Part shown: in pieces, positions 52,298-53,908 of the stretch
Numbering within the stretch: position 1 is the first letter of the stretch
How the letters are laid out: each line of letters begins with the position of its first letter
DNA from: Escherichia coli
GTDB lineage: Bacteria > Pseudomonadota > Gammaproteobacteria > Enterobacterales > Enterobacteriaceae
Length of the DNA: 64,000 nt
Assembly: GCF_044324785.1 (NCBI RefSeq)
Contig: NZ_CP172127.1
Reading direction: 5' to 3' (one strand)
Translations under genes and position numbers: made by a program
Notes under the pieces: model-generated
The model's input: the letters and a program-made list of their open reading frames with translations, nothing else
Databases searched by the model: none
What the model was told of the DNA's origin: nothing

Positions 52298-53029
52298 ATG
52301 AAGATGTTGCGCGATCCGCTGTTCTGGCTCATTGCTTTGTTTGTGGCACTGATTTTCTGGCTGCCTTACAGCCAGCCGCTGTTTGCTGCCTTGTTCCCAC
52401 AACTGCCACGACCCGTTTATCAGCAGGAAAGCTTTGCAGCTCTGGCACTGGCTCATTTCTGGCTGGTGGGAATTTCGAGTTTGTTTGCGGTGATCATTGG
52501 CACTGGTGCAGGAATTATTGTTACTCGCCCGTGGGGCGCGGAATTTCGCCCACTGGTGGAAACTATTGCCGCCGTTGGGCAGACTTTTCCGCCCGTCGCG
52601 GTGCTGGCGATTGCCGTTCCGGTGATTGGGTTTGGTCTGCAACCCGCGATTATCGCCTTGATCCTTTACGGTGTGCTGCCCGTCCTACAGGCGACACTTG
52701 CCGGGCTGGGAGCGATTGATGCCAGCGTGACAGAAGTTGCGAAAGGTATGGGAATGAGTCGAGGTCAGCGACTGCGTAAGGTCGAGCTACCGCTGGCGGC
52801 TCCGGTGATTCTGGCGGGCGTGCGAACTTCGGTGATTATCAACATTGGTACGGCGACGATCGCCTCAACGGTAGGGGCCAGCACGCTGGGTATGCCCATC
52901 ATCATCGGGCTTAGCGGATTTAATACCGCGTATGTGATCCAGGGGGCGTTACTGGTGGCACTGGCGGCGATCATTGCAGACCGCCTGTTTGAAAGGCTGG
53001 TGCAGGCGCTTAGCCAGCACGCAAAATAA
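52298..53029 (+). CDS. yehW: ABC transporter permease
   Basis: 243 aa polytopic permease. Confidence 0.88.
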
Positions 53030-53117
53030 AGGTATAACCTGCGAGCATGACGCCACCAATTCCGCCTAACGCCATAAACAGGAACAGGGCGATGACCCCA
53101 ATTTTAGCTATGCGCAT
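53010..53117 (-). CDS. yohO: Small (35 aa) single-TM membrane protein, convergently overlapping the yehW 3' end by 20 nt
   Basis: Hand translation: [35 protein letters not shown]-stop; below the ORF-track cutoff; symbol from memory of K-12 small proteins. Confidence 0.6.
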
Positions 53118-53176
53118 AATGCACTCCTTATGTTAACGAAAGGATTGTACAGTAAAGCGCATTTGTTAACGAATCA

Positions 53177-53908
53177 TTAAATGCCGAGTGGGAAAATATC
53201 ATGGCCTTGTTCCTGCCAACTGGTAAGTTGCTGCTGTTGGGCAGAGGTTCGATTTTCACCGCACCACACCAGCAATGTACGGCCTTCGAACAGTTCAGGG
53301 CGTAGTTGATTGAGCGAGTGGGCGAGGACATCAATGCGCCATCCTTGTTGACTGGCAATCCAGCCCTCCAGCCACAGACGGGTGGTATCCTGAATATTCC
53401 AGCCAACTACCAGCGCATCTTTACCCTGTTTTTTACGCGCCGAAGCCAGACAAATGGCGATGTAGTTGATCAGTACGCCGTCGAGGATCGCCAGCAGCGC
53501 CTGGAGAGTCGGTTGTTGGCACTGAAGTCGTCGGCGCAGAGGAATAAACAGATGTGTGGTGAGCGTCTGGGCGGGGTAATCCTGACCGCGCTCTTTGATC
53601 CACGTTCGCAGGCTATGCAGATTGCCGCTTTGCAGGTAAGTCAGTAATGTTTCTTGCTGATCGCGCCAGCCGTTCTGCACATCAACATTTTCATTACTGA
53701 GCAGCATTTTAACTTTGCTAACCTGCACGCCGTTGTCGATCCAGCGTTTGATCTCGCGGATCCGGTCAATATCGGCATCATTGAACAGCCGATGACCGCC
53801 GTCTGTCCGTTGCGGTTTCAGCAATCCGTAACGCCTCTGCCACGCGCGTAACGTGACAGGGTTAATATCACAAAGCAACGCCACTTCACCAATTGTGTAA
53901 AGCGCCAT
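53177..53908 (-). CDS. mlrA: MerR-family transcriptional regulator (curli/csgD activator)
   Basis: 243 aa; N-terminal MerR HTH YTIGEVALLCDINPVTLRAWQRRYGL. Confidence 0.9.
   Translation of the reverse strand: MALYTIGEVALLCDINPVTLRAWQRRYGLLKPQRTDGGHRLFNDADIDRIREIKRWIDNGVQVSKVKMLLSNENVDVQNGWRDQQETLLTYLQSGNLHSLRTWIKERGQDYPAQTLTTHLFIPLRRRLQCQQPTLQALLAILDGVLINYIAICLASARKKQGKDALVVGWNIQDTTRLWLEGWIASQQGWRIDVLAHSLNQLRPELFEGRTLLVWCGENRTSAQQQQLTSWQEQGHDIFPLGI

Follow-up and report, generated by a model that had tools for sequence, protein, structure and literature searches.

Introduction

Small single-pass membrane proteins that bind to larger membrane complexes have been characterised in Escherichia coli, including AcrZ, KdpF, CydX and MgtS. 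YohO resembles these four proteins in its size range (about 30-50 aa), in its single hydrophobic helix, in the strong ribosome-binding site of its gene and in the location of this gene beside a transporter gene. However, YohO shows no sequence similarity to any of them, and its gene is on the strand opposite to that of the adjoining transporter gene, the permease gene yehW.

The yohO-yehW pair also belongs to a described class of gene arrangements, since it was listed among 165 convergent excludons called by ExcludonFinder in at least 50% of the E. coli RNA-seq samples (PMC12288877). The pair fits the structural definition of this class, namely two convergent genes with overlapping 3' ends. 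Most of the listed excludons overlap in their 3' untranslated regions only, their intergenic distance averaging 95 nt (PMC12288877), whereas in yohO-yehW the coding sequences themselves overlap and no intrinsic terminator is recognisable.

[quoted passage not shown] In a screen for D-alanine export, yohO appeared among the first-round candidates only and was dropped in the second round. The searchable literature, searched also under 'UPF0387' and under yohO with yohP, assigns no function to YohO, and neither interaction data nor a partner for the protein were found in it. Both the yohO gene and its overlap with yehW are already known; what the current study adds, from sequence comparison, is how old the overlap is and how exactly it is laid out, the asymmetry of the selection acting on it, a conserved putative dedicated promoter and the occurrence of unlinked copies in Erwinia.

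Identification of yohO in the window

A sequence-only reading of the window, that is, of the whole stretch of 64,000 nucleotides of E. coli DNA analysed here, had pointed to a minus-strand frame of 35 codons with an ATG start, had described it as a yohO-like membrane protein gene and had attributed its absence from the list of open reading frames (ORFs) to a length cutoff. An ORF listing with a minimum of 20 aa returned exactly this frame (Table 1), and the cutoff was indeed the reason for its omission, as the 60-aa default left yohO out of the list. A 35-codon ORF is not significant by itself, because the 5 kb around yohO hold 81 ORFs of 20 aa or more. This one goes beyond chance given its AAGGAG Shine-Dalgarno (SD) site, its match to the YohO profile and the purifying selection on its frame in 80 species. 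Besides, an in-frame TAA five codons upstream of the ATG rules out a longer form.

Table 1. Positions of yohO and of neighbouring features in the window
Feature	Position	Strand	Remarks
yehW	52298..53029	+	Permease gene closing the osmF-yehYXW operon (glycine betaine ABC transporter); ORF and RefSeq; TAA stop at 53027-53029
Convergent yohO/yehW CDS overlap	53010..53029		20 nt; yehW stop antisense to positions 2-3 of yohO Phe30 and position 1 of Ile31
yohO CDS	53010..53117	-	35 aa and TAA stop (53010-53012, tta on the + strand); UPF0387/YohO family, single-pass small membrane protein
Shine-Dalgarno AAGGAG	53124..53129	-	6 nt upstream of the yohO ATG
Inverted repeat I1	53124-53144	-	
Direct repeat D2	53131-53140, 53164-53173	-	TTCGTTAACA twice (+ strand TGTTAACGAA), 33 bp apart, flanking the -10 hexamer
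Putative yohO -10 hexamer TACAAT	53144..53149	-	From conservation
mlrA	53177..53908	-	Upstream of yohO on the same strand, ending 59 nt before its ATG; stop at 53177-53179

The label 'yohO-like' proved correct in a stronger form, as the feature is yohO itself. Both the protein and the gene DNA are identical to those of K-12 MG1655, and no difference from K-12 was found in the ribosome-binding site, the promoter region, the neighbours or the 20-nt overlap; over 241 nt covering yohO and its upstream region a single base differs, which is located in yehW outside yohO. The RefSeq protein WP_001216963.1 is the common accession of YohO in K-12 and in strain FDN-9, and strain FDN-24 showed 99.6% identity to the window over 701 nt. 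With a 701-nt query around yohO, matches of at least 95% identity were obtained in 5,423 of the 5,426 complete E. coli genomes, and all 55 complete E. coli genomes among the matches listed carry the RefSeq annotation 'yohO: protein YohO' between yehW and mlrA.

Profile searches were in agreement with this assignment. The NCBIfam equivalog NF010225 'protein YohO' matched with 80.1 bits (cutoff 57; E=8.8e-23), residues 1-35 being aligned to positions 1-35 of the 35-position profile, and in the precomputed annotation the YohO homologues belong to Pfam PF27791, UPF0387_membrane. The local Pfam-A search, based on another Pfam version than the precomputed contig annotations, returned no YohO family; its sub-threshold match to B12D was taken as noise, and B12D was rejected as the Pfam family of YohO. 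Altogether, the feature is almost certainly yohO itself, a real and annotated protein-coding gene for a 35-residue single-pass inner-membrane protein.

Sequence conservation and predicted features of YohO

The YohO family appears to be narrow, as a phmmer search over 1.84 billion representative proteins returned only 17 matches; the intact ones share one 11-residue YohO core, and the others resemble truncated or fused copies. An alignment-driven scan with one genome per species found a relative in 159 species, and 80 of these 159 loci were analysed, spanning Escherichia, Salmonella, Citrobacter, Klebsiella, Raoultella, Kosakonia, Leclercia, Pluralibacter, Shimwellia, Erwinia and other genera. 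The frame was open in all 80, with an ATG start, 34-37 codons and no premature stop.

Over codons 1-29, which are outside yehW, the 78 distinct sequences gave a pS of 0.60, a pN of 0.14 and a dN/dS of 0.12 in the yohO frame, compared with a dN/dS of 0.3-3.4 in the other five frames, all of these values being rough since they derive from pooled, non-independent pairwise Nei-Gojobori counts and since synonymous sites are near saturation (pS 0.6). The minor-allele fraction followed the codon positions, with 0.37 at third, 0.14 at first and 0.05 at second positions. These substitution patterns indicate that the yohO frame is under purifying selection at the amino acid level in Enterobacteriaceae and in Erwinia, and the signal is unambiguous. 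Loss of conservation in related genomes had been proposed as the observation that would speak against the gene; what was found is a frame that is always open.

The membrane location proposed from the sequence is in agreement with the hydropathy of the protein (GRAVY 1.58) and with its description as membrane-bound in the preprint mentioned above. The N-terminus is basic (MRIAK) and is followed by one hydrophobic stretch of membrane-spanning length, the best 19-residue Kyte-Doolittle window covering residues 8-26 with a score of 2.41. Conserved residues cluster towards the C-terminus of the helix, in a nearly invariant half that reads MAxxGIxGVMLAGYxFI. Alignment A2 shows no variation at residues G19, I20, G22, V23, M24, L25, G27, Y28 and I31; all of these are present in the YohO of the window, which also has every residue of the consensus at 90% or more over 49 distinct YohO proteins, MA..GI.GVMLAGY.FI. 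Therefore, the features that characterise the family, namely a length of 34-37 aa, one segment of transmembrane length, a basic N-terminus and the core G-I-x-G-V-M-L-x-G-Y, are all found in the window protein.

The same C-terminal half contains a GGxGG cluster and a small-residue face, G18xxxG22xxxA26, and small-residue patterns of the GxxxG type are typical of close helix-helix packing. Because of this pattern, YohO probably acts by packing its glycine-rich helix (G18-G19-x-G21-G22...A26-G27) against transmembrane helices, which could be its own, in an oligomer, or those of a larger membrane protein.

Overlap of yohO with yehW

The last five sense codons and the stop of yehW lie inside yohO. 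A convergent overlap of 20 nt comprising the final codons and stop of yehW had already been noted from the sequence alone; the coordinates agree, and the RefSeq annotation gives the same geometry in FDN-9 and in K-12, with yehW at 2099-2830 and yohO at 2811-2918 in locus L001. The position of the overlap is constant across the family, as the yehW stop was found over Phe30-Ile31 in all 76 sampled loci with yehW and in six further assemblies, which represent a more divergent lineage with a YohO 60% and a YehX about 65% identical to those of E. coli. Where yohO reads TTT-ATT the antisense yehW stop is TAA, and where it reads TTC-ATT the stop is TGA. The overlap measures 20 nt with a 35-aa YohO, 26 nt with a 37-aa YohO and 17 nt with one 34-aa form. 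In the 37-aa class (L031-L081), a 6-nt indel in or beside the overlap lengthens YohO and YehW by two residues each, the YohO end changing from RAG to RGGVG and YehW growing from 243 to 245 aa (tail of FERL plus 9 residues to FERL plus 11).

Selection on the shared nucleotides is asymmetric. In the overlap, dN/dS was 0.06-0.11 in the yohO frame and 1.1-3.3 in the yehW frame, which follows from the phase of the overlap, since the wobble positions of yehW are opposite the second positions of yohO and the second positions of yehW are opposite the yohO wobble positions. Just upstream of the overlap the dN/dS of yehW was 0.09, and the YehW tails drift over their last 5-7 residues (for example SQHAK, TRHVK and SRHRREQ). 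Given the low dN/dS in the yohO frame and values of at least 1 in the yehW frame, the sequence of the overlap is dictated by YohO and not by the YehW tail. Judging from the loci compared, the overlap is ancient. Its persistence requires no selective explanation, because only about three unconstrained yehW codons separate the yohO stop from the conserved FERL motif. Most likely, the overlap was frozen in place as a result of tight packing of the genes.

The transcripts would overlap as well, considering that a 20-nt overlap of the coding sequences implies an overlap of any full-length yohO and yehW mRNAs. No convincing intrinsic or bidirectional terminator was found after the yohO stop or the yehW stop on either strand, the folding z-scores after the two stops were -0.77 and +0.51, and the overlap had no Rfam match. 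Since neither strand has an intrinsic terminator, each of the two mRNAs would be expected to run antisense into the other gene. The initial suggestion that the two mRNAs are antisense to each other at their 3' ends is thus in line both with the terminator search and with the published excludon listing (PMC12288877).

Alternatively, the overlap may have been selected as a means of regulation, i.e., as a true excludon in which the transporter and YohO are expressed reciprocally, either through transcription interference between osmF-yehYXW and (mlrA-)yohO or through a 3' duplex cut by RNase III. Such a device would be in agreement with the listing of the pair in at least half of the RNA-seq samples (PMC12288877), with the retention of the coding overlap in 82 of the 82 loci with yehW, down to a YehX identity of about 65%, and with the lack of an intrinsic terminator between the genes. 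However, the listing is a genome-wide coverage call and not a test of reciprocal regulation for yohO-yehW, and the overlap could persist neutrally, as the yohO stop follows about three codons after the conserved FERL core of YehW, and the yehW codons that are left are fixed by the sequence of YohO. Moreover, Erwinia has yohO without yehW nearby, and one Escherichia genome (L005) retains yohO after the deletion of most of yehW-yehY. We consider the excludon a tentative possibility, somewhat on the unlikely side, and favour the frozen consequence of gene packing. A more specific proposal, in which the yehW stop, invariably antisense to yohO codons 30-31 in the sampled Enterobacteriaceae, would be at the centre of a conserved switch of the excludon type coupling YohO to the expression or assembly of OsmF-YehYXW, seems improbable; in a variant of this proposal, YohO itself could act on the transporter.

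Gene context of yohO

The order of genes in the window is the same as in K-12, with osmF-yehY-yehX-yehW converging on yohO-mlrA, followed by btsS-btsR. Adjacency of yohO and mlrA was found in 67 of the 76 sampled loci with yehW, and mlrA is missing from the other nine yohO-yehW loci (L036, L040, L044, L054, L059, L061, L063, L064 and L070), in eight of which btsS is located 220-300 nt upstream of yohO in divergent orientation. Considering its absence from nine loci and the position of btsS upstream in eight of them, mlrA appears to have been inserted between btsS and yohO, or lost from there, in some members of the family.

Two loci show that yohO can outlast its convergent neighbour. In L005 (Escherichia sp. 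MOD1-EC7003) most of yehW-yehX-yehY is deleted, and yohO, mlrA and btsSR are intact; in L068 (Trabulsiella odontotermitis strain 01) yehW is disrupted and yohO is intact. At positions 3092-3283 of L005 the last 30 yehW codons are joined to an osmF fragment.

Erwinia (L030, L043, L047, L082 and L089-L092) carries a free-standing yohO homologue of 34 aa without yehW or mlrA nearby. This gene follows, at a distance of 74 nt, a cluster of SDR, amine oxidase, DUF1365, CFA-synthase-like (CMAS), DUF2878 and DUF3833 genes. Downstream of it there are an MFS transporter gene, absent in L092, and then a 243-aa gene beside a RES-domain gene. The 243-aa product has a weak match to Xre/MbcA/ParS antitoxin domains, which suggests that this gene and the RES-domain gene form a toxin-antitoxin pair. 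After the stop codon of the Erwinia yohO there is a GC-rich hairpin. The MFS neighbour was considered as a possible ProP-like osmoprotectant carrier and was rejected, since NCBIfam gave only weak, sub-cutoff generic MFS matches and since the E. persicina strain L092 has no MFS gene.

These arrangements bear on the possibility that YohO serves the osmoprotectant transporter OsmF-YehYXW as an accessory subunit or as a regulator, comparable to AcrZ, KdpF and MgtS in their own systems. The location of yohO beside yehW in every sampled locus with yehW, a link steadier than that with mlrA, would agree with such a role, and the conservation of the C-terminal helix all round, together with the GGxGG and GxxxGxxxA patterns, suggests tight packing. 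Nevertheless, yohO is on the strand opposite to the transporter genes and is not transcribed together with them, and a linkage forced by the overlap carries little functional information. The Erwinia homologues occur in unrelated contexts, and yohO remains intact where yehW is deleted (L005) or disrupted (L068); interaction data for the pair were not found in the searchable literature. On our analysis a subunit or regulatory role at this transporter is unlikely. Overall, synteny does not point to a partner of YohO: the yehW link is forced by the overlap in Enterobacteriaceae, yohO outlasts an intact yehW in two loci, and the neighbours in Erwinia are inconsistent.

Putative promoter region of yohO

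The 59-nt gap between mlrA and yohO is strongly conserved. Within the SD site, A-G-G-x-G is invariant in a 20-species alignment, and (A/C)AGGAG occurs in nearly all of the 80 loci. The putative -10 hexamer is TATAAT in most genera; positions T1, A2, A4 and T6 are invariant across 20 genera and in the divergent lineage L083-L088, and position 3 varies. Since invariance of these four positions with a variable third one is the signature expected of a -10 element, the hexamer is likely real. Downstream of it GTTAACAT is found, followed by the SD site. The promoter was deduced purely from conservation, its -35 region being poor, so that the consensus scanner made no call; a conserved TTAACA box 14 nt from the -10 hexamer is too close to serve as the -35 element.

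The whole promoter/SD block is also present in the nine loci without mlrA, eight of them with btsS directly upstream, and in the divergent lineage L083-L088, where an ArsR-type gene or metG is upstream. Very probably, yohO has its own promoter, and the gene would be transcribed from this conserved element in the gap after mlrA. Read-through from mlrA is probably an additional source of transcription, because no terminator was found between mlrA and yohO.

Two repeats were observed in the promoter region. Both TTAAC cores of the direct repeat D2 are conserved at 90% or more across genera. The upstream copy, 14 nt from the -10 hexamer, is too near to it for a -35 element, and D2 may be an operator for some regulator. 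An operator for MlrA was considered, as the E. coli sequence TTAACA-N12-TGTACAAT matches the MlrA site of csgD, AAAGTTGTACA(12N)TGCACAATTTT, at 13 of 22 positions and at 10 of 14 core positions. This candidate was rejected, since by a binomial estimate about 40 core matches of this quality would arise by chance when both strands of the 64 kb are counted, and since most genera have CGTATAAT as the right half, the resemblance reflecting a chance overlap with the -10 hexamer. In the inverted repeat I1, TCCTT directly after the -10 hexamer can pair with AAGGA of the SD site to form a 5-bp stem around the palindrome GTTAAC. The stem is weak and of doubtful function; it would be present in mlrA read-through transcripts and probably missing from those that start at the yohO promoter, and its conservation is limited to Escherichia, Salmonella, some Citrobacter, K. 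oxytoca and Pseudocitrobacter.

With regard to regulation, the mRNA of yohO in Shigella flexneri was 2.96 log2 units lower under anaerobic than under aerobic conditions, and no significant effect of fnr is listed (PMC4229854). In addition, a genomic SELEX peak of a minor sigma factor is located inside yehW, beside yohO (PMC5493296).

The proximity of mlrA raises the question of whether YohO functions with MlrA in the stationary-phase pathway of curli and biofilm formation, as the product of the distal gene of an mlrA-yohO unit. The common strand, the short gap of 59 nt without a terminator and the adjacency in 67 of 76 loci would fit such a unit. Nonetheless, yohO retains a conserved -10 hexamer and an SD site of its own and is unchanged both in the nine loci without mlrA and in L083-L088 with their different upstream genes, and a joint function with MlrA appears unlikely. 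Finally, the reading of yohO as a chance open frame, or of its conservation as that of a non-coding element or of antisense yehW instead of a protein, is already refuted: short ORFs are plentiful around it and 20 nt of it overlap a real gene, but 87 of its 108 nt are outside yehW and show a three-base periodicity of substitutions, with a dN/dS of 0.12 in its own frame only, stops are absent in 80 species, the equivalog profile matches, the protein was seen by mass spectrometry (PMC12529367) and, according to the preprint, by ribosome profiling, and there is neither an Rfam match nor a stable RNA structure.

Concluding remarks

As a discovery the gene is minor, considering that yohO is annotated in all 55 complete genomes listed, that its product has been detected and that the overlap is on a published list of excludons. 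It is nonetheless of use as a positive control, being a genuine gene of 35 codons that could be recognised from the raw sequence. Besides, the yohO/yehW pair provides a clean example of shared selection, in which the frame of the small protein is protected and the last 5-7 codons of the permease drift. YohO is one of the conserved small membrane proteins of E. coli without an assigned function, and its conserved putative promoter, the glycine-rich face of its helix and the unlinked copies in Erwinia offer concrete experimental handles.
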